From IMG/VR virus record IMGVR_UViG_3300045988_103312, positions 1 through 52,573 of that record: a stretch of 52,573 nucleotides of DNA; one strand, given 5' to 3'. Source of the stretch: a virus. Both the position numbers and the translations under genes were made by a program. This document shows positions 21,981 through 52,573 of the stretch, in pieces (within the stretch, counting starts at the first letter, position 1; the number at the start of each line of letters is the position of its first letter). The notes under the pieces are model-generated. The model saw only the letters and a program-made list of their open reading frames with translations, ran no database searches and was not told where the DNA came from.

Positions 21981-22184
21981 TTAGTAGATGTCCGAGCGCG
22001 TCGTTGCGACTCTGCGCCCGATTTCCGGCTCCAGCGCATAGCGTGAGGAGTCGATGCAGTTATGCACAATCAGCCCGCCGTTGACAGCGAAATTGTGGAA
22101 ACGCTCGACCTCCATGTTATACACGGGTTCAGCCGATCTGCGCTTCATGGCCTTCACGCGCACGTATTTTTCGTCTTCGCTCAT
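21981..22184 (-). CDS. terL: Terminase large subunit, C-terminal fragment: intein C-half (42 aa, 22059-22184) + 25-aa C-extein (21984-22058)
   Basis: MSEDEKYVRVKAMKRRSAEPVYNMEVERFHNFAVNGGLIVHN / CIDSSRYALEPEIGRRVATTRSDIY; intein blocks F/G ending HN then Cys+1; ATG overlaps methyltransferase stop (ATGA). An upstream TTG at 22247 is an alternative start. Confidence 0.8.
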   Translation of the reverse strand: MSEDEKYVRVKAMKRRSAEPVYNMEVERFHNFAVNGGLIVHNCIDSSRYALEPEIGRRVATTRSDIY

Positions 22185-23401
22185 ATCGCCATTTTCTCCT
22201 GAAGGGTCAGCCACGCCCGAATTTCGTCTGCCTGACGTTTTGGGCAATACAGGCGCTCCGTCACCTTTTTCTGATGTTTTGCTCCTTGCATTAATTGTCG
22301 CTTTTCAATTTCTGCTAGCATTGTAAAACGATCATCATCGATACAATACTCGGAAATGATGATTGGCGCGGTCTGTACATCCGCCCAGTCCAGAAATGCC
22401 GCTCGGTCAAACCGCACGCCGTAGTTGTCTGCGGTGCAGTTATATGGAATATCGCAGTACACCACTGCGTCTCCCGGGATCTTCACATCACGATAATCAA
22501 GTCCAGAAACTTGCAGCCCTTGCAGTCTTTGCAGTCTTTGCAGGCTTTGCAGGCTTTGCAGTCTTTGCAGTCTTTGCAGGCTTTGCAGGCTTTGCAGAAT
22601 CTCCAATGTGTTCAGTTTCTCATTCAACATCGCCCAGGGAATCGTCAGCCCCGGTATGATGGTTTTCATCTTCTCGTAGGCTTCTTCTGTCGGCAGCGCC
22701 CATTGGCTTTCGCCGAAATAATGCCCAGCCATACCGTTGGTTCCCAGCAATCTGTCCACGTCGCTGGCGCGCTTTTCGCTGTCCCGAAGAGCCGCGCGCA
22801 TATATTCGCGGATTTCTTTCGAATGTGCACGAAATACGCTCTTGCGGGTATTCTCTGCGTCAATACTTCCATCCGCGCGTTCAACTGAGGCCGCGCCGCA
22901 TTCTGCGCATAGCCGTCGTGCCTTTCCGCTCAGCACATCCACGTCCCGATTCAGACGATTGAATTCCGCCACAAAGGCCCGCCATGCACTCATGCGCTCG
23001 GCGACTGTGTCTGCGAAAACAAGCTCGTGCAGGCGCTTCTTGAACGGCTCGATTTCCTTCGCGTATAAATATGTATTACCATCGTTCCCGAACGACCAGC
23101 ACAGCCGCACATAAGCGTCCGTATCCTTCAGCCGGAAAAAGTCCTCTCTGGAAATCCAACGCTTTTCTGTTTCCGTCGTGTATTTCCCGGCAATTGCGTC
23201 CATAAATAGTTGCGGCGCGTCACCGTGAAGATCGTTGGCAATGATCCGCTCCCATTTCCCGGACAGCAGCGCCGCATGTGTCACCGCGCAGCCCCCGCAA
23301 AACAAATCGACCAGCGTTCCGCTCCCGGGCAGGTGCTCGATCACCCAGTCTGCAATCGCGTTTTTGCTCCCCTGGTATGGTAAGCCGTATTTCCGTGCCA
23401 T
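22181..23401 (-). CDS. DNA N6-adenine methyltransferase (D12/Dam class), located between the split-intein halves
   Basis: LPYQGSKN, motif I DLFCGGCAV, motif IV VVYCDIPY; own GGAGG SD 5 nt upstream of ATG 23401; contains (LQ[SRG])10 repeat. Confidence 0.85.
   Translation of the reverse strand: MARKYGLPYQGSKNAIADWVIEHLPGSGTLVDLFCGGCAVTHAALLSGKWERIIANDLHGDAPQLFMDAIAGKYTTETEKRWISREDFFRLKDTDAYVRLCWSFGNDGNTYLYAKEIEPFKKRLHELVFADTVAERMSAWRAFVAEFNRLNRDVDVLSGKARRLCAECGAASVERADGSIDAENTRKSVFRAHSKEIREYMRAALRDSEKRASDVDRLLGTNGMAGHYFGESQWALPTEEAYEKMKTIIPGLTIPWAMLNEKLNTLEILQSLQSLQRLQRLQSLQSLQRLQRLQGLQVSGLDYRDVKIPGDAVVYCDIPYNCTADNYGVRFDRAAFLDWADVQTAPIIISEYCIDDDRFTMLAEIEKRQLMQGAKHQKKVTERLYCPKRQADEIRAWLTLQEKMAI
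22510..22599. repeat. Ten tandem 9-bp repeats (cttgcagyc/tttgcagkc) inside the methyltransferase gene
   Basis: Read directly; higher-order 36-bp pattern (gtc,gtc,ggc,ggc) x2; encodes LQSLQSLQRLQRLQSLQSLQRLQRLQGLQ. Confidence 0.95.
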
Positions 23402-39304: not shown

Positions 39305-39362
39305 AGTGCCATTTAATGGCACTTACTATAATCATTATAGTGCCTTATAATGGCATTGTCAA
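39305..39362 (-). promoter_or_regulatory. Consensus promoter of the replication operon with two palindromic operators
   Basis: Minus strand TTGACA (39362-39357)-17 nt-TATAAT (39339-39334); palindromes agtgccatttaatggcact (39305-39323, perfect) and agtgccttataatggcat (39339-39356, fills the spacer). Confidence 0.6.
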
Positions 39363-42991: not shown

Positions 42992-43117
42992 TCGCACATC
43001 GCGATCTTGTGATTATATTATAGTCGCGATTTGCGATATTGTCAAGGGGTTTTGCAAAAAAAAGTTCGCGAAATGCGATGTTTTTTTATTGACTTAAAAC
43101 AGAATATCGGTTATAAT
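42992..43117. promoter_or_regulatory. Genetic switch: back-to-back consensus promoters and three 14-bp operators
   Basis: Minus TTGACA (43045-43040)-17-TATAAT (43022-43017); plus TTGACT (43089-43094)-17-TATAAT (43112-43117); operators tcgcacatcgcgat (42992-43005), tcgcgatttgcgat (43024-43037), tcgcgaaatgcgat (43066-43079). Confidence 0.65.
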
Positions 43118-43135
43118 AGAATCGAGGTGAAAACA

Positions 43136-43606
43136 ATGACAGTTGGAGAGCGCATAAAAAAGGCGCGCTTAGAAAAAGGCTATACGCAACTGCAATTAGC
43201 GGAAATGATAGGGGTCGCCAAGAACACAATTACTGGGTACGAAACAGGTACGCGTGAGCCGGACTCAAGTCGAATCACAGCTATTGCGAATGCGTTGAAT
43301 GTATCAGGAGACTACATTATAGGTACTGAATACGACTGGCTTCCGTCATCAGCGGCGATGAAAATCGCCGCCAAATACGACAAGCTCGATCAGCATGGCA
43401 GGGAGCTGATTAATTGGGTAGTCGACCACGAAATTAGAAGAGTGCAGTCCGCGGTACCGGCAAAGCGCGACACGACCAAGGTCACGGTCGATCCCGACGA
43501 GGTCAGCGTGTTGGAGAAGGCCCAGCAGGGCGCAGCAAATGCCGCGCTAAGCGGATCAAATGCCGCGGAGGGCGAAACGGCTGCTCCAGACGAAAAGGCT
43601 CAGTAA
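43136..43606 (+). CDS. CI-like repressor (XRE HTH, no S24 peptidase domain seen)
   Basis: ATG 43136 after GAGGTG; ERIKKARLEKGYTQLQLAEMIGVAKNTITGYETGTREP. Confidence 0.75.
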   Translation: MTVGERIKKARLEKGYTQLQLAEMIGVAKNTITGYETGTREPDSSRITAIANALNVSGDYIIGTEYDWLPSSAAMKIAAKYDKLDQHGRELINWVVDHEIRRVQSAVPAKRDTTKVTVDPDEVSVLEKAQQGAANAALSGSNAAEGETAAPDEKAQ

Positions 43607-47932: not shown

Positions 47933-48253
47933 CTACTTCCAGCCATCGATCATCGCCTTAACCTCGGCGGTCTTGGCGATGAGGTCGTTGTGGATGGCTT
48001 CCCACGCGGCGATCATGCCGTCGGCGTAGGCGGGCTTTTGCTTGTACTCCTCGGAGGCCTTGTAGCCCTCGATCAGCTTCTTCACCACGGCGTGGCCGTT
48101 GGTGTTGAAATTGATGTGGGCCGCGGCCATCTCGCGATACCACGCGGCGGCCTCGGGATGCTCCGCCTTTAGGTCGTAGGCCGTGCGGATTTTGCCTCGG
48201 GCCTCCTCGATGTTTCCGGCGATGTCGTTGCTCAGGCGCTTGATGATCTTCAT
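47933..48253 (-). CDS. Hypothetical all-helical 106-aa protein (cargo operon gene 5)
   Basis: Track ORF; no motif. Confidence 0.6.
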   Translation of the reverse strand: MKIIKRLSNDIAGNIEEARGKIRTAYDLKAEHPEAAAWYREMAAAHINFNTNGHAVVKKLIEGYKASEEYKQKPAYADGMIAAWEAIHNDLIAKTAEVKAMIDGWK

Positions 48254-48265
48254 ATCTGCGCCTCC

Positions 48266-48700
48266 TTAGGCCAGCTTGACCGCGCTGGCGCATACGTGGC
48301 TGACCGTTCCGGCAGCGCCGCTCACGCGCGCGCTGATGACGGGCTGGATCGCGCAGCAGGTGGCCAGCCGCACCACCGTCTCCACGTGCTGGGTGATTTC
48401 GCCTCCTGCCGCCACGGTATCCGTGGTCATCGCGCAGGGCATGGGCGTGGAGCCGTTGTAGAGCTGGAGCACCTGAGCGCCCGCCGCGCCGGGGGTGCTG
48501 GTCACGTCAAAACTGACGCGGAACAGGCCGCCGGCGTTGATTCGGAATCCGCCGCTCTGGGTGGTGATGGAGCAGCCGGTGTCGGTGATCTGGGTGCCGA
48601 GCACGTTGATGGTCGTCCCCTCGGCGGTGTAGGTCTGCAAAGCGGCGTTGTACGCGGCCTGCGCAGACTTCTGGTGGATGTTTTTGCAATTACAGGACAT
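48266..48700 (-). CDS. C1q/TNF-like (BclA C-terminal-domain-like) protein (cargo gene 4)
   Basis: GGFRINAGGLFRVSFDVTSTPGAAGAQVLQLYNGSTPMP...VVRLA beta-sandwich pattern; GGAAGGAG SD. Confidence 0.5.
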   Translation of the reverse strand: MSCNCKNIHQKSAQAAYNAALQTYTAEGTTINVLGTQITDTGCSITTQSGGFRINAGGLFRVSFDVTSTPGAAGAQVLQLYNGSTPMPCAMTTDTVAAGGEITQHVETVVRLATCCAIQPVISARVSGAAGTVSHVCASAVKLA

Positions 48701-48783
48701 ATTATTCTCCTTCCATTTACAGCGCCCGCCCGGCGCATGGCTCGGACGGGCGCAGGCGCTGTTATAACGCGTATGTCAGTTGG

Positions 48784-49482
48784 TTACGCGACGTAACCGG
48801 CTCCGCAGCTTCCGCAGCCCTGCGCGGCGTAGGGGTTGTAGCCCGACTGATACGGGCTGCACGTCAGGTACGCCGGCACAGGGGTCTTGTTGATGGCCGA
48901 GAGCAGCGTGTTGGTCTGCGACAGCGTGCCGAGCTGGAGCTGGGCCGCCTGCAGGTTGTCGCGCAGCTCCTGCATGGTGTTGGCGTTGATGAGCGCGCGG
49001 GTGGCCTCGCCCTCCGCGTGGATCGCCGTCTTCACGTCGCAGCAGCACTGCGCCTGCTGGGCCTGCATGGCCTGAGCCTGCAGGGCCGCGTCGTAGCGGT
49101 TCTGCATGATTTCCTTCTGGGTGGTGCAGCAACACTGCTGGGCGGCGAAGCGATTCTCCATGATGGATTTGTCGATGCCGGCCATACCGAGCTGGGTGTT
49201 GTAGCGGTTCTCCAGCACGTCGCGCTGCACGCCGAACTGGTCGCGCATCAGGCCGTTCTGGTTGCGGAGGATTTCGGCGGTGTTAAAGCCGTCGGCCATC
49301 TCGCCGCGGGTGAGCGCGCCCTGAAGGCCGGCATTGCCGTTGCCCCACAGACCGCCGCCCATCATGCCGAATACGAGGAAGAGCACGACGATCCAGAAGA
49401 AACCGCCGTCGCCGAAGAAGCCGTCGCAGTTGCGATCCTTATTGGTCACGGCCGCGATGTCGGCAAGGGTCATATTGTCCAT
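48784..49482 (-). CDS. Cys-rich single-pass membrane protein with ENRY-type repeats (cargo gene 3)
   Basis: TM FFWIVVLFLVFGMMGGGLWG; LENRYNTQ / MENRFAAQ / MQNRYDAA; CCC x2; GCGSCGAGY tail; AAGGAG SD. Confidence 0.65.
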   Translation of the reverse strand: MDNMTLADIAAVTNKDRNCDGFFGDGGFFWIVVLFLVFGMMGGGLWGNGNAGLQGALTRGEMADGFNTAEILRNQNGLMRDQFGVQRDVLENRYNTQLGMAGIDKSIMENRFAAQQCCCTTQKEIMQNRYDAALQAQAMQAQQAQCCCDVKTAIHAEGEATRALINANTMQELRDNLQAAQLQLGTLSQTNTLLSAINKTPVPAYLTCSPYQSGYNPYAAQGCGSCGAGYVA

Positions 49483-49537
49483 TTAGGTCACTCCTTTTTG
49501 ATATTTATCCTCAGCCCGTAGCGCTCCGGGCAAAGAA

Positions 49538-49756
49538 TCATCCCTTGAAAAATCCCTGCATCTGCTCGGCGATCTGCTTCGCCTGCTCAAGCTGCTGGGC
49601 GTTGATCTGGCCGCTTTGCAGCATCTCGTTGATCTTCTGCTGGGCCGCCTGGGGCGACCACATCTGCCGAAATTGCCGGAACTGCTGAAGCATCTGCATC
49701 CCCGGCATCTGGGCGTTGGCCTGTTTGGCCATCATGCCGATGAGAGGGTTGCTCAC
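49538..49756 (-). CDS. Gln/Met-rich 72-aa protein (cargo gene 2)
   Basis: GMQMLQQFRQFRQMWSPQAAQQKINEMLQSGQINAQQLEQAKQIAEQMQGFF; ATGA-type overlap with gene 1. Confidence 0.6.
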   Translation of the reverse strand: MSNPLIGMMAKQANAQMPGMQMLQQFRQFRQMWSPQAAQQKINEMLQSGQINAQQLEQAKQIAEQMQGFFKG

Positions 49757-50181
49757 AGGTTGATCCCTCCCAGCGCGTTTTCAAGCTGCGACAACTTGTC
49801 CGACACAGCCTTGATCTCGTCCTTGGTGGCAAACTGCGATACGTCGATCTGGGGCGCGGGCGCAGCCTGCGTCTGGGCCTGCGGGTCGATTTCCAGCAGC
49901 CGGAACGACTTGAGCGTCGCCGTGCCCATGCTGTCCACGGCCTTGACGTGGATGACCGGGTCGTTGTTGTCCATCATCCACGCCGTCTGTCCGGGCTGGA
50001 CGATGTGGTCGCGCGCGCCCTGCACACCGTTGACGTAAATCCACGACACATTGCTCTGCGCGCCGCTGTTCTGCGGCGGCACCTGTTGCGTCATTTGCAT
50101 CATCTGCGGCTGAGGGGGCATGTAGTTGGCGTTGAAATATCCCGGCACAGCGGGCTGGGGAAATGGGTAGTTATAAGCCAT
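49753..50181 (-). CDS. P/Q/M-rich N-tail + small beta domain protein, weakly GerQ-like (cargo gene 1)
   Basis: ATG 50181 six nt after GAGGTG; MAYNYPFPQPAVPGYFNANYMPPQPQMMQMTQQ...; GARDHIVQPGQTAWMMD. Confidence 0.6.
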   Translation of the reverse strand: MAYNYPFPQPAVPGYFNANYMPPQPQMMQMTQQVPPQNSGAQSNVSWIYVNGVQGARDHIVQPGQTAWMMDNNDPVIHVKAVDSMGTATLKSFRLLEIDPQAQTQAAPAPQIDVSQFATKDEIKAVSDKLSQLENALGGINL

Positions 50182-50361: not shown

Positions 50362-50402
50362 AAAAATGAAAATACCGGCATCCCAATTACAGGAATGCCG
50401 GT
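50362..50402 (-). terminator. Intrinsic terminator of the three-gene moron
   Basis: Minus strand accggcat...atgccggt stem followed by attttcattttt. Confidence 0.65.
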
Positions 50403-50415
50403 GCTTGTTGATTAC

Positions 50416-50745
50416 TTAGCTTTTGAGGCTGTCCTCTATCGCTTTCTGCATCATTGCAATTGCAGTGTTCTTATATACGGGTTTCCAGCCCCAGTAGTCA
50501 TCTCCTTTGACCATTTCATATTTATTGTGTACCATATACCATCCGCCATCAAATTGATCTCGGTATTCGGCCTCCAGTTCTTCCGCCGATGCATCATTCC
50601 CCAAGTCTCTCCACGTAAAAGTTACCTTGTATTTGTTCCCTCTGCCGCTTGCCCACTCAAACGCTTTTTCTGCATTGTCAAATACACCACTGTCAAAACA
50701 CAATCCATCCCGGTTTATGAGGTCTACTCTAATTGCACCCTTCAT
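50416..50745 (-). CDS. Hypothetical 109-aa protein (moron gene 3)
   Basis: AAGGAGGAAAAG SD; AT-rich; no motif. Confidence 0.65.
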   Translation of the reverse strand: MKGAIRVDLINRDGLCFDSGVFDNAEKAFEWASGRGNKYKVTFTWRDLGNDASAEELEAEYRDQFDGGWYMVHNKYEMVKGDDYWGWKPVYKNTAIAMMQKAIEDSLKS

Positions 50746-50764
50746 TTTCTTTTCCTCCTTGCTC

Positions 50765-50974
50765 CTATTGCATCAATTCGTCCATTGTACAATGCAACGC
50801 ATCTGTAAGTTTCAGCAACGCTACCCCATTCGGCGTGTGTTTCCCAGTTTCCCAGCGGGCAATCATTGCTTGGGTAGTGCCGATCGCTTCTGCGAGCTGC
50901 TTTTGTGTCAGCCCCAGCGCGATACGACGCTGGGCAATCAGGCTGTTGTTGGTAACCCTTGGGTCAGTTCGCAT
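50765..50974 (-). CDS. XRE-family HTH regulator (moron gene 2, Aca-like)
   Basis: ATG 50974 nine nt after GGAGG; RRIALGLTQKQLAEAIGTTQAMIARWETGKHTP. Confidence 0.8.
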   Translation of the reverse strand: MRTDPRVTNNSLIAQRRIALGLTQKQLAEAIGTTQAMIARWETGKHTPNGVALLKLTDALHCTMDELMQ

Positions 50975-51533
50975 TGGCACCTTCCTCCTTTCTGCGACAA
51001 TCAGGTTTATTCAACGCAAATCTTGTCACGGTATAATAAGGCGCCCAGTTCCCGATTTCGTCAATCTTGGATTCATATTCACGCTTACATTCTAACGCTT
51101 TTTCTTTTTTGTCATACACTCCAACAATCGGGGCTTCATCATTGAGAGTGCCAGGATTGCCGTGGCGCATAACTACGTATACAGCAACTTCTTCATCAAT
51201 TCCATCGTTTTCGGCCGTCTCCGCCATGTCTTCGGTTGCTTCGGTTTCTTCGGGCACGAGGATACTAATGATTGTATCAAGCTGGGCAGCGCATTCTTCG
51301 CCGTGCCCCATGCTGCGAGTGGCAATTTCATCGTTCGCAAGGTCGATCCACATCTTGCCATTAAAGCGATCATAACGATTAACGGCGAATCTTCCCGGAA
51401 ATTCATCACAATTGGCAGTCCATGCATCCACAGCAGTGAGGTCAATATATAGTCTCTCTATTCCATTTTTCCTCCAAAGACGAGCCAGTTTATTTTCGAT
51501 CAGCGCCTCGATAACTTTTTTAGTGTACTTCAT
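50964..51533 (-). CDS. Hypothetical 189-aa protein (moron gene 1)
   Basis: GGAGGG SD; AT-rich; acidic central tract EETEATEDMAETAENDGIDEE. Confidence 0.65.
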   Translation of the reverse strand: MKYTKKVIEALIENKLARLWRKNGIERLYIDLTAVDAWTANCDEFPGRFAVNRYDRFNGKMWIDLANDEIATRSMGHGEECAAQLDTIISILVPEETEATEDMAETAENDGIDEEVAVYVVMRHGNPGTLNDEAPIVGVYDKKEKALECKREYESKIDEIGNWAPYYTVTRFALNKPDCRRKEEGANAN

Positions 51534-51598
51534 GATTTCCCTCCACTTTCTGCGGCTCTGCCGCCGGTCGCTCTTGCTTCCCTCAACCTTGTGACTAT

Positions 51599-51627
51599 AT
51601 TATATATCATTTTTGATATATTGTCAA
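51599..51627 (-). promoter_or_regulatory. Perfect consensus promoter TTGACA-17-TATAAT with embedded 8-4-8 palindrome
   Basis: Minus TTGACA 51627-51622, TATAAT 51604-51599; palindrome atatatca tttt tgatatat at 51602-51621. Confidence 0.65.
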
Positions 51628-51671
51628 GCCTTTTTACGGGGTTTTCCAAAACTTTTTTTGCAAAAAAAGCC

Positions 51672-51706
51672 AAAAGAAAAAAGGCCGGCGGATTGCTCCA
51701 CCGGCC
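51672..51706 (-). terminator. Intrinsic terminator ending the late/lysis operon
   Basis: Minus strand ggccggtgg agcaatc cgccggcc followed by ttttttctttt. Confidence 0.75.
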
Positions 51707-51713
51707 TGAAAGC

Positions 51714-51968
51714 CTACATACATTTATCTACCGCCTGCATCACCAGCTCGATGCGCGGGACGATCTGCCCGCGCAGGCGCTTGGAAACGGCGCTCCTGTC
51801 CATGCCCACCGCTGCGGCGATGTCCGCATAGTCCATGCCCCAGACGAGGCGAGAGGCGGCGATATGCACATCTGACGGCGCGAGCCGCGCCTCGATGATG
51901 AGGCGCGACATCACCGACGAGGTCACGCCGTCAAACTGCGGGTACTCGTCGTATTTCATCATATGCAC
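51714..51968 (-). CDS. Small sigma-70 region-4-like HTH protein
   Basis: WGMDYADIAAAVGMDRSAVSKRLRG; last gene before the late terminator. Confidence 0.5.
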   Translation of the reverse strand: MHMMKYDEYPQFDGVTSSVMSRLIIEARLAPSDVHIAASRLVWGMDYADIAAAVGMDRSAVSKRLRGQIVPRIELVMQAVDKCM

Positions 51969-52340: not shown

Positions 52341-52358
52341 GGTTTTTCTCCTTTCTTG

Positions 52359-52573
52359 CTATACCCCTTTGATGATGTAGCCCACCGCCACGCCGACGGC
52401 GGCCAGCACGACGTATTTGACGATCTCAAAGGCCAGTTTCTTCCATTTGTCTCCCGGCTCCCGCTCGATCACGTCGATGCGCTTGCCCAGCTTGTCCACC
52501 TTGCCGTCGATGCTGTTAATCGTAGACAGGATATTTTGCTGAGCGTTGGATATGTTTTGGATGTCCAGCAGCA
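52359..52573 (-). CDS. XhlA-like protein, 3' part (continuation of the ORF starting at nt 188; last 55 nt duplicate nt 1-55)
   Basis: ...INSIDGKVDKLGKRIDVIEREPGDKWKKLAFEIVKYVVLAAVGVAVGYIIKGV, stop TAG 52359-52361. Confidence 0.6.
   Translation of the reverse strand, partial: LLDIQNISNAQQNILSTINSIDGKVDKLGKRIDVIEREPGDKWKKLAFEIVKYVVLAAVGVAVGYIIKGV
52519..52573. repeat. Terminal direct repeat, second copy (identical to nt 1-55)
   Basis: Read directly. Confidence 0.95.

Follow-up and report, generated by a model that had tools for sequence, protein, structure and literature searches.

A mobile three-gene phage cassette with constant regulation and exchangeable cargo is probably an autorepressed, acr–aca-like anti-defence operon

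The virus record IMGVR_UViG_3300045988_103312, analysed here over its whole length of 52,573 nucleotides (the window), is the genome of a temperate siphovirus that carries a compact cassette of three small genes on its minus strand. The genes encode proteins of 189, 69 and 109 amino acids (aa), of which the second is an XRE-type helix-turn-helix (HTH) protein. An earlier note on this DNA had read the cassette as a moron built like an anti-CRISPR (acr)–anti-CRISPR-associated (aca) operon, in which the HTH protein represses its own promoter and the two other proteins are candidate inhibitors of host defence. We find that the cassette is a mobile insertion in which the regulatory parts stay constant and the cargo is swapped, and that the operator varies together with the recognition helix of the HTH protein. 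This suggests that the cassette is probably an acr–aca-like, autorepressed anti-defence operon. An anti-defence role for the 189-aa and 109-aa proteins of the window themselves is credible by association, and a specifically anti-CRISPR role for either of them is rather unlikely.

The cassette is read as terminator, promoter, 189-aa gene, HTH gene, 109-aa gene and terminator (Table 1). One promoter, three genes and one terminator make up a single co-transcribed layout that includes an HTH gene, as in acr–aca operons. The anatomy given in the earlier note proved accurate throughout. An open reading frame (ORF) scan recovers the three genes where they had been placed, the terminator of the late operon forms the upstream boundary as a stem followed by a run of T, a second intrinsic terminator lies behind the third gene, the promoter matches the consensus at 12 of 12 positions, and a perfect 8-4-8 palindrome occupies the spacer and −10 region. 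The cassette is also AT-richer than its neighbours, with a GC content of 0.41–0.51 versus 0.57–0.68 in the flanks.

Table 1 Features of the cassette in the window
Feature	Position	Strand	Description
Intrinsic terminator, 5′ boundary of the cassette; closes the lysis/late operon	51682..51707	−	11-bp stem (51707-51682) with 8 GC pairs, then TTTTTTCTTTT
A/T-tract palindrome	51652..51669	−	CTTTTTTTGCAAAAAAAG, just 5′ of −35; found as inverted repeat I7
Sigma-70-type promoter	51599..51627	−	TTGACA-17-TATAAT, 12/12 consensus; −35 TTGACA 51627-51622, −10 TATAAT 51604-51599
Operator	51602..51621	.	Perfect 8-4-8 palindrome ATATATCA-aaaa-TGATATAT; predicted site for a dimer of the 69-aa HTH protein
5′ untranslated leader and ribosome-binding site	51534..51598	−	Block AAGGTTGAG...GACCGGCGGCA..CCGC.CAGAAAG.GGAGG
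Gene 1	50964..51533	−	189 aa, isoelectric point (pI) 4.75; candidate effector; ORF scan
Gene 2	50765..50974	−	69 aa, XRE/Cro-C1-type HTH; ATG at 50974; HTH_3 E = 6e-16
Gene 3	50416..50745	−	109 aa, pI 4.97, 5 Trp; orphan alpha/beta protein, candidate effector; ORF scan
Closing intrinsic terminator	50362..50402	−	11-bp stem (50402-50374) with 7 GC pairs, then ATTTTCATTT

Three exact consensus promoters occur in the window, that of the cassette among them, and seven promoter-like sites have at most one mismatch, against 0.03 expected. Across 13 aligned cassette promoters the −10 hexamer is invariant and the −35 hexamer nearly so, and an A-tract 5′ of −35 is retained on both of the phage backbones that carry the cassette. 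The A/T-tract palindrome of the window looks like an UP element. Each of the three genes is preceded by a GGAGG-type ribosome-binding site. The HTH gene overlaps the 3′ end of the 189-aa gene by 11 nt and is translationally coupled to it; an alternative GTG start at 50980 would extend the HTH protein to 71 aa.

The cassette is lodged between the last gene of the lysis operon (82–84 aa, 51714-51968) and a conserved 142-aa gene (50181-49753). With the 142-aa gene as an anchor we collected 40 IMG/VR loci; L numbers below denote the loci compared. In more distant relatives (L019, L024, L025, L027 and L042) the same flanking genes lie only 180–430 bp apart and the cassette is absent, showing that it is an insertion. 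Together with its own promoter and terminator and its deviant composition, this upholds the moron label. Alleles in the window have a GC content of 0.45–0.46 versus 0.55–0.62 for homologous alleles in other phages, a difference in composition that points to recent import. An unrelated second backbone also carries this trio, there placed between the terminase side and a cI-like repressor or integrase, and the trio is found in pig-gut samples too. A search with the cassette DNA against 50,697 phage records gave no match. The upstream terminator, which stands 3′ of the 82–84-aa gene, is kept in all loci on the phage backbone of the window.

On near-identical backbones (L015–L018, L020, L054 and L001) the promoter, the leader of about 60 nt and the HTH family are constant, whereas the other genes differ (Table 2). 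The 71-aa gene directly 5′ of the HTH gene in L001 and L020 matches the AcrIC5 family (PF22147) with 40.4 and 38.7 bits, against a Pfam gathering score of 27, and a 138-aa gene in the L016 operon encodes an LPD15 polyvalent-protein domain (E = 1.1e-14). The guilt-by-association check on the HTH family that the earlier note had suggested was therefore positive. AcrIC5, which has orthologues in Firmicutes, inhibits two type I-C systems (PMC7913775); the protein is acidic and is predicted to occlude the protospacer adjacent motif (PAM) site of Cas8c (bioRxiv 10.1101/2025.06.06.658234). LPD domains occur in Aca-regulated operons and are predicted to act in anti-defence (PMC13551039). Cargo genes of the sister cassettes were found neither beside 74 generic XRE loci nor in the rest of the window, except for one weak match to the 173-aa protein (L144).

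Table 2 Gene content of the cassette slot, in order of transcription (numbers are protein lengths in aa)
Locus	Genes
Window	189 - HTH - 109
L001	187 - AcrIC5-like - HTH
L015	173 (zinc ribbon) - 186 - 94 - HTH
L016	173 - HTH - LPD15 gene - 109
L017	173 - 171 - HTH
L018	173 - 71 - HTH::109 fusion
L020	173 - 141 - 186 - AcrIC5-like - HTH
L054	173 - 159 - 342 - HTH

The operator reaches from the last base of −35 through the spacer into the first bases of −10. It is single in the window even with three mismatches allowed (0.05 expected), and only 0.46% of shuffled spacers attain an 8-bp arm. An inverted repeat within the core promoter is common to all tested Aca families (PMC9410906), and such a repeat is conserved here: the sequence between the hexamers of the 13 aligned promoters falls into four classes, each palindromic at the same position (Table 3). 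Dyad symmetry is kept across the classes through compensatory changes at both half-sites. Every class is paired with its own helix-3 sequence, helix 2 is invariant, and the variable residues of the HTH protein are concentrated in helix 3. The window and L054 have operator and helix 3 in common and wholly different cargo.

Table 3 Operator classes and the recognition helices paired with them
Class	Loci	Operator	Helix 3	Shuffle p
A	Window, L054	ATATATCA-4-TGATATAT	TTQAMIARWE	0.0046
B	L018, L009-L014	ATACATC(C)(A)-n-(T)(G)GATGTAT	STQQMIAKWE	0.0001-0.0016
C	L001	TATACAC-8-GTGTATA	TTQQTIAQWE	0.0067
D	L015-L017, L020	TACCA(AA)-n-(TT)TGGTA	C(Y/S/N)PKD(I/V)(C/S)RWE	0.03 (one variant, with 5-bp arms, is not significant by the shuffle test alone)

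Symmetric double changes of the half-sites that track the recognition helix are what is predicted for the site of a dimeric repressor. The co-variation in four classes and the uniqueness of the operator in the phage give good support to the earlier proposal that the HTH protein is an autoregulator acting via the palindrome, and we consider it very likely, from the paired operator and helix sequences, that the protein binds this site and represses its own promoter. Because the operator fills the spacer and overlaps both hexamers, its occupancy should exclude RNA polymerase. The predicted Aca-like autorepressor belongs to a distinct XRE lineage marked by an MRTDPR N terminus and is under purifying selection, with a ratio of non-synonymous to synonymous substitution rates (dN/dS) of 0.10–0.14. 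Its nearest solved relatives, in a sequence search of the PDB at E ≤ 0.01, are P22 C2, HigA and the 434 repressor.

The leader hardly varies, even between cassettes with different operators, HTH classes and first genes (window, L001, L009–L018, L020, L054 and L064–L067). Cargo shuffling may use it as a recombination joint, or it could be an RNA-level control element of the kind reported lately for the Aca1, Aca2, Aca10 and Aca12 leaders, several Aca families having a conserved leader RNA (PMC13551039). No covariation was detected in two short GC hairpins predicted in the leader, whose pairs are invariant. The hairpins do not resemble the operator, and a conserved Aca-binding RNA motif formed by them is no more than a possibility.

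The HTH and 109-aa proteins are linked physically as well as by position. In five protein clusters (P0014, P0017, P0018, P0021 and P0022) the 109-aa protein forms the C-terminal half of a 188-aa HTH fusion (alignments A2 and A3), and such HTH::109 fusions are seen directly in the DNA of L002, L009, L018 and L068–L071. This tight linkage, fusions included, shows that the two are functionally coupled. In L001 and L020 the HTH protein ends in ...DDSLKG or ...YDSPKG, which is the end of the 109-aa domain (its last six or so residues; L001 8980-9219, L020 4316-4555). The tail left on the HTH protein indicates that a fusion lost its 109-aa domain by an in-frame deletion, and this is seen exactly in the cassettes with AcrIC5. 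In L016 (3518-4595) the LPD15 gene is inserted in the HTH::109 linker, and linker codons are duplicated on either side of it.

As the earlier note had stated, the 189-aa and 109-aa proteins are free of recognisable motifs: neither matches a family at threshold in Pfam, PHROGs, PADLOC or NCBIfam, and neither matches a PADLOC defence-system model at E ≤ 1. The 109-aa family comprises 13 clusters among 5.8 billion proteins, and an exhaustive search of 1.84 billion representatives with the family profile gave seven hits, one of which (P0027) is a spurious LDL-repeat protein. The gene is under purifying selection (dN/dS 0.08–0.10). Its AlphaFold2 (AF2) model is moderately confident, with a predicted local distance difference test score (pLDDT) of 76 and a predicted TM-score (pTM) of 0.70. 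Foldseek searches with this model against PDB and BFVD gave nothing at E ≤ 1e-3, and all TM-scores were below 0.45. A comparison with AcrIC5 (PF22147) gave nothing even at E ≤ 10.

A lipocalin-like identity for the 109-aa family, raised by a match of profile A2 to PDB entry 2mw1 (E = 2.6e-11), was an artefact of one sequence, P0024, and vanished on its removal. P0024 (127 aa, from a 500-bp contig) is a chimera of a Bacteroides-like lipoprotein N terminus and the C-terminal half of the 109-aa protein. The N-terminal half (beta-beta-alpha-beta, G.xFD..xF....EA.EWA.GRG..Y.V) recurs alone or tandemly duplicated in P0026 (122 aa), P0028 (67 aa) and L015 (4135-4419), a sequence pattern that points to a module of some 50 residues. 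L004 and L007, two phages from different samples that are otherwise nearly identical, carry an insertion sequence element (Transposase_mut/MULE, 410 aa) directly 3′ of the 109-aa gene (L004 8434-9666, L007 6135-7367).

The 189-aa protein is modular, with a highly conserved N-terminal domain (residues 1–95), an acidic linker (94–115) and a C-terminal domain (about 113–189). The linker bears out the acidic centre described in the earlier note, with 11 Asp or Glu among the 22 residues. In most relatives the C-terminal domain is swapped for an unrelated, very acidic domain (alignment A1). The family comprises 11 clusters among 5.8 billion proteins, and dN/dS of the N-terminal domain is about 0.10. 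A search for the N-terminal domain pattern in IMG/VR and GTDB genomes found no relative, and a search for homologues of the C-terminal domain returned none. Residues 117–160 give a match to DUF7336 (PF24024) of 18.7–20.7 bits, below the gathering cut-off of 25 and hence a lead only, and the C-terminal domain a sub-threshold match to phrog_3002 (E = 0.019); the protein does not match AcrIC5 (PF22147). Its AF2 model is poor (pLDDT 59.5 overall, 74–84 over residues 1–40, uneven in the N-terminal domain and low in the C-terminal domain), and Foldseek found nothing in the PDB at E ≤ 1e-3, with all TM-scores below 0.45.

Two further ideas about the 189-aa protein found no support. A weak Foldseek match of the N-terminal domain to WRINKLED1 and the presence of AP2 genes in acr loci had suggested an AP2-like DNA-binding domain, which we reject at an hhalign probability of 0.09%. 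Homology of the C-terminal domain to the N-terminal half of the 109-aa protein, raised by a shared motif (GV[YF]DxxEKA[LF]E), is not supported, with an hhalign probability of 3.7% over 15 columns.

We propose that the cassette, mobile and self-contained, serves a temperate siphovirus of gut Clostridia-like bacteria as an accessory operon and would work as follows. Host RNA polymerase would fire the consensus promoter once phage DNA becomes available, giving a single tricistronic mRNA (about 1.2 kb) with its 3′ end at the cassette's own terminator. The HTH protein would then bind as a dimer to the 20-bp palindrome between and over −35 and −10 and shut the promoter, in an Aca-type negative autoregulation. 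The payload would be the proteins of genes 1 and 3, which are small and acidic, lack enzyme motifs and most likely bind and block host immune proteins. We count in favour of this proposal that the cargo is acidic, is under purifying selection and has no toxin, enzyme or defence-system matches.

A wider joint reading is possible, and we hold it tentatively. The MRTDPR XRE proteins would be a new Aca-type family with at least four operator specificities encoded in helix 3, and phages of gut Clostridia would have new anti-defence families in the 109-aa protein and the modular 189-aa protein (constant N-terminal domain, exchangeable acidic C-terminal domains). The HTH::109 fusions would be bifunctional inhibitor-repressors like AcrIIA1, and the 109-aa domain might be functionally interchangeable with AcrIC5, as its in-frame deletion exactly in the AcrIC5-carrying cassettes suggests.

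Several points weigh against an anti-defence operon. The window cassette has no recognised Acr, and neither of its cargo proteins has a homologue of demonstrated function. The AcrIC5-family match in the sister cassettes spans only 34 residues and scores poorly against the solved AcrIC5 (E = 0.72), and the HTH protein matched no Aca or AcrIIA1 chain in the PDB sequence search (E ≤ 0.01; solved structures only). One cargo gene lies 3′ of the HTH gene, which is less usual for acr–aca operons. The co-variation of operator and helix extends over four classes only and is confounded with shared ancestry. The host is placed no further than gut 'Clostridia-like' bacteria. Finally, variable cargo at a fixed prophage slot is also typical of prophage-encoded defence hotspots.

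The last point leads to the strongest of the rival explanations, prophage-encoded defence or superinfection exclusion. Here the lysogen would express the operon at a low level held by the HTH protein, and the 189-aa and/or 109-aa proteins would exclude competing phages. The cassette has an independent promoter and terminator and a low GC content, its place between lysis and attachment-side genes is the classical one for lysogenic-conversion morons, and the HTH protein has weak PADLOC matches to the defence-system regulators RmrA and capH and to controller proteins. Against this, the cargo has no PADLOC, Pfam or NCBIfam match, it is small, acidic and free of enzyme motifs, the ORF listing gives none of the membrane-spanning segments typical of exclusion proteins, and the only identifiable cargo of the sister cassettes consists of the counter-defence families AcrIC5 and LPD15. 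We regard this explanation as unlikely.

It is very unlikely that the cassette is a phage-internal regulatory module, such as an anti-repressor or a modulator of the lysis–lysogeny decision, whose cargo acts on phage regulators and not on host immunity. On the second backbone the cassette does adjoin a cI-like repressor or integrase region, and the phage has several other HTH regulators and operator-bearing consensus promoters. However, the cassette is dispensable, being absent from related phages, it moves between unrelated backbones with different immunity regions, its operator is found nowhere else in the genome, and its cargo, including an AcrIC5-family gene, is freely swapped.

The least probable reading is a toxin–antitoxin or addiction module, raised as an alternative in the earlier note, with the HTH protein as autoregulating antitoxin and the 109-aa (or 189-aa) protein as toxin: the layout fits, in that a small XRE protein whose own promoter contains a palindromic operator is standard for type II antitoxins, the HTH protein has sub-threshold matches to MqsA, HipB, HigA and Xre-like antitoxin models and its linkage to the 109-aa protein is tight, but the bare 69-aa DNA-binding domain has no toxin-neutralising extension, neither cargo protein matches a toxin family (Pfam, NCBIfam, PADLOC), both are acidic whereas most toxins are basic, and the partners are not constant. 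L001, L020 and L054 have the HTH gene but no 109-aa protein (L001 and L020 showing the in-frame deletion scar), L015–L018, L020 and L054 have it but no member of the 189-aa family, and a 109-like gene may stand 5′ of it (L015).

Beyond the cassette, the window contains tail protein, endolysin, holin and serine recombinase genes and an HTH switch region. In relatives a 115-aa gene stands between endolysin and holin; here it is split over the two window ends (1-208 and 52341-52573), indicating a circularly permuted and probably complete phage genome. No cultured phage has a portal protein more than 40% identical to that of the window, and metagenome-assembled genomes of Clostridiales, Lachnospiraceae and Acetatifactor contain distant homologues of the flanking gene. 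The 82–84-aa gene on the lysis side (minus strand) is 99–100% identical in every close relative (L001–L007, L015–L018, L020 and L054) and has sub-threshold HTH or sigma-70 region-4-like matches only; a DNA-binding protein after the holin would be odd. On the other side, between the cassette and the serine recombinase, lies a conserved post-lysis module (47958-50181, minus strand) encoding Gln/Cys-rich proteins of 142, 72, 232, 144 and 111 aa, one of which has a weak BclA_C-like match; the others match PHROGs of unknown function only.

Two more promoters of the window match TTGACA-17-TATAAT perfectly (39334-39362 and 43017-43045, both on the minus strand), and each has a spacer palindrome of its own. 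A one-mismatch promoter (43089-43117, plus strand) diverges from the second of these beside an HTH gene (43031-43606, plus strand), and this arrangement is probably the lysogeny switch, with the same operator-in-spacer design. Amid the packaging and morphogenesis genes lies an orphan D12-class N6-adenine DNA methyltransferase gene (22181-23401, minus strand), which could be another counter-defence gene of the phage, directed against restriction.

To our knowledge, phages of the gut Clostridia, bacteria that are abundant and poorly cultured, have yielded few anti-defence loci, and almost no Aca-type regulators have been described from them. The acr–aca design itself is known; what appears to be new is an Aca-like XRE lineage with orphan cargo in phages of these bacteria. 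The four matched pairs of operator and helix 3 could serve as orthogonal repressor–operator parts, and the promoter, leader and HTH gene as bait for finding more cargo genes. Some ten small orphan proteins, including the two of the window, become prioritised candidate inhibitors of type I-C or other defence systems. Should the cargo be inert or act in exclusion, the locus would still be a clean example of a shuffling, self-repressed moron.

The cassette resembles acr–aca operons, with their autorepressors Aca1–Aca14, in its strong consensus promoter with an inverted repeat in the core promoter, in the co-transcription of a small HTH gene with small, fast-turnover genes of unknown function, in the AcrIC5-family gene directly 5′ of the HTH gene in sister cassettes and in the conserved leader RNA. 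It differs in that the HTH protein is of the MRTDPR XRE lineage, with no match to a solved Aca at E ≤ 0.01, and in that the window cassette has a cargo gene 3′ of the HTH gene and no recognised Acr. AcrIC5, which blocks target-DNA binding by the type I-C complex, takes up this operon slot in L001 and L020 and, like the cargo proteins of the window, has a small size and a strongly acidic composition; it is absent from the window, and the 189-aa and 109-aa proteins do not match its family. The 188-aa HTH::109 polypeptide of five clusters and several loci has its HTH domain at the N terminus, as in bifunctional Acr–Aca proteins such as AcrIIA1 (PMC9410906). In contrast to AcrIIA1, to which there is no similarity in sequence or fold, the HTH and 109-aa proteins are separate genes in the window and inhibition by the 109 domain is hypothetical.

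With type II toxin–antitoxin systems that use XRE antitoxins (HigA, MqsA and HipB) the cassette shares a short XRE HTH protein, a promoter palindrome and compact, overlapping genes; it differs in having acidic partners and no toxin family, obligate partner or neutralising HTH extension. Like phage morons as defined in lambdoid and HK97 phages, it has an independent promoter and terminator and a deviant composition, is transcribed in the same direction as its neighbours, and is inserted between two genes that are adjacent in related phages. Unlike such morons, it has a dedicated repressor and belongs to a family of shuffling cassettes.

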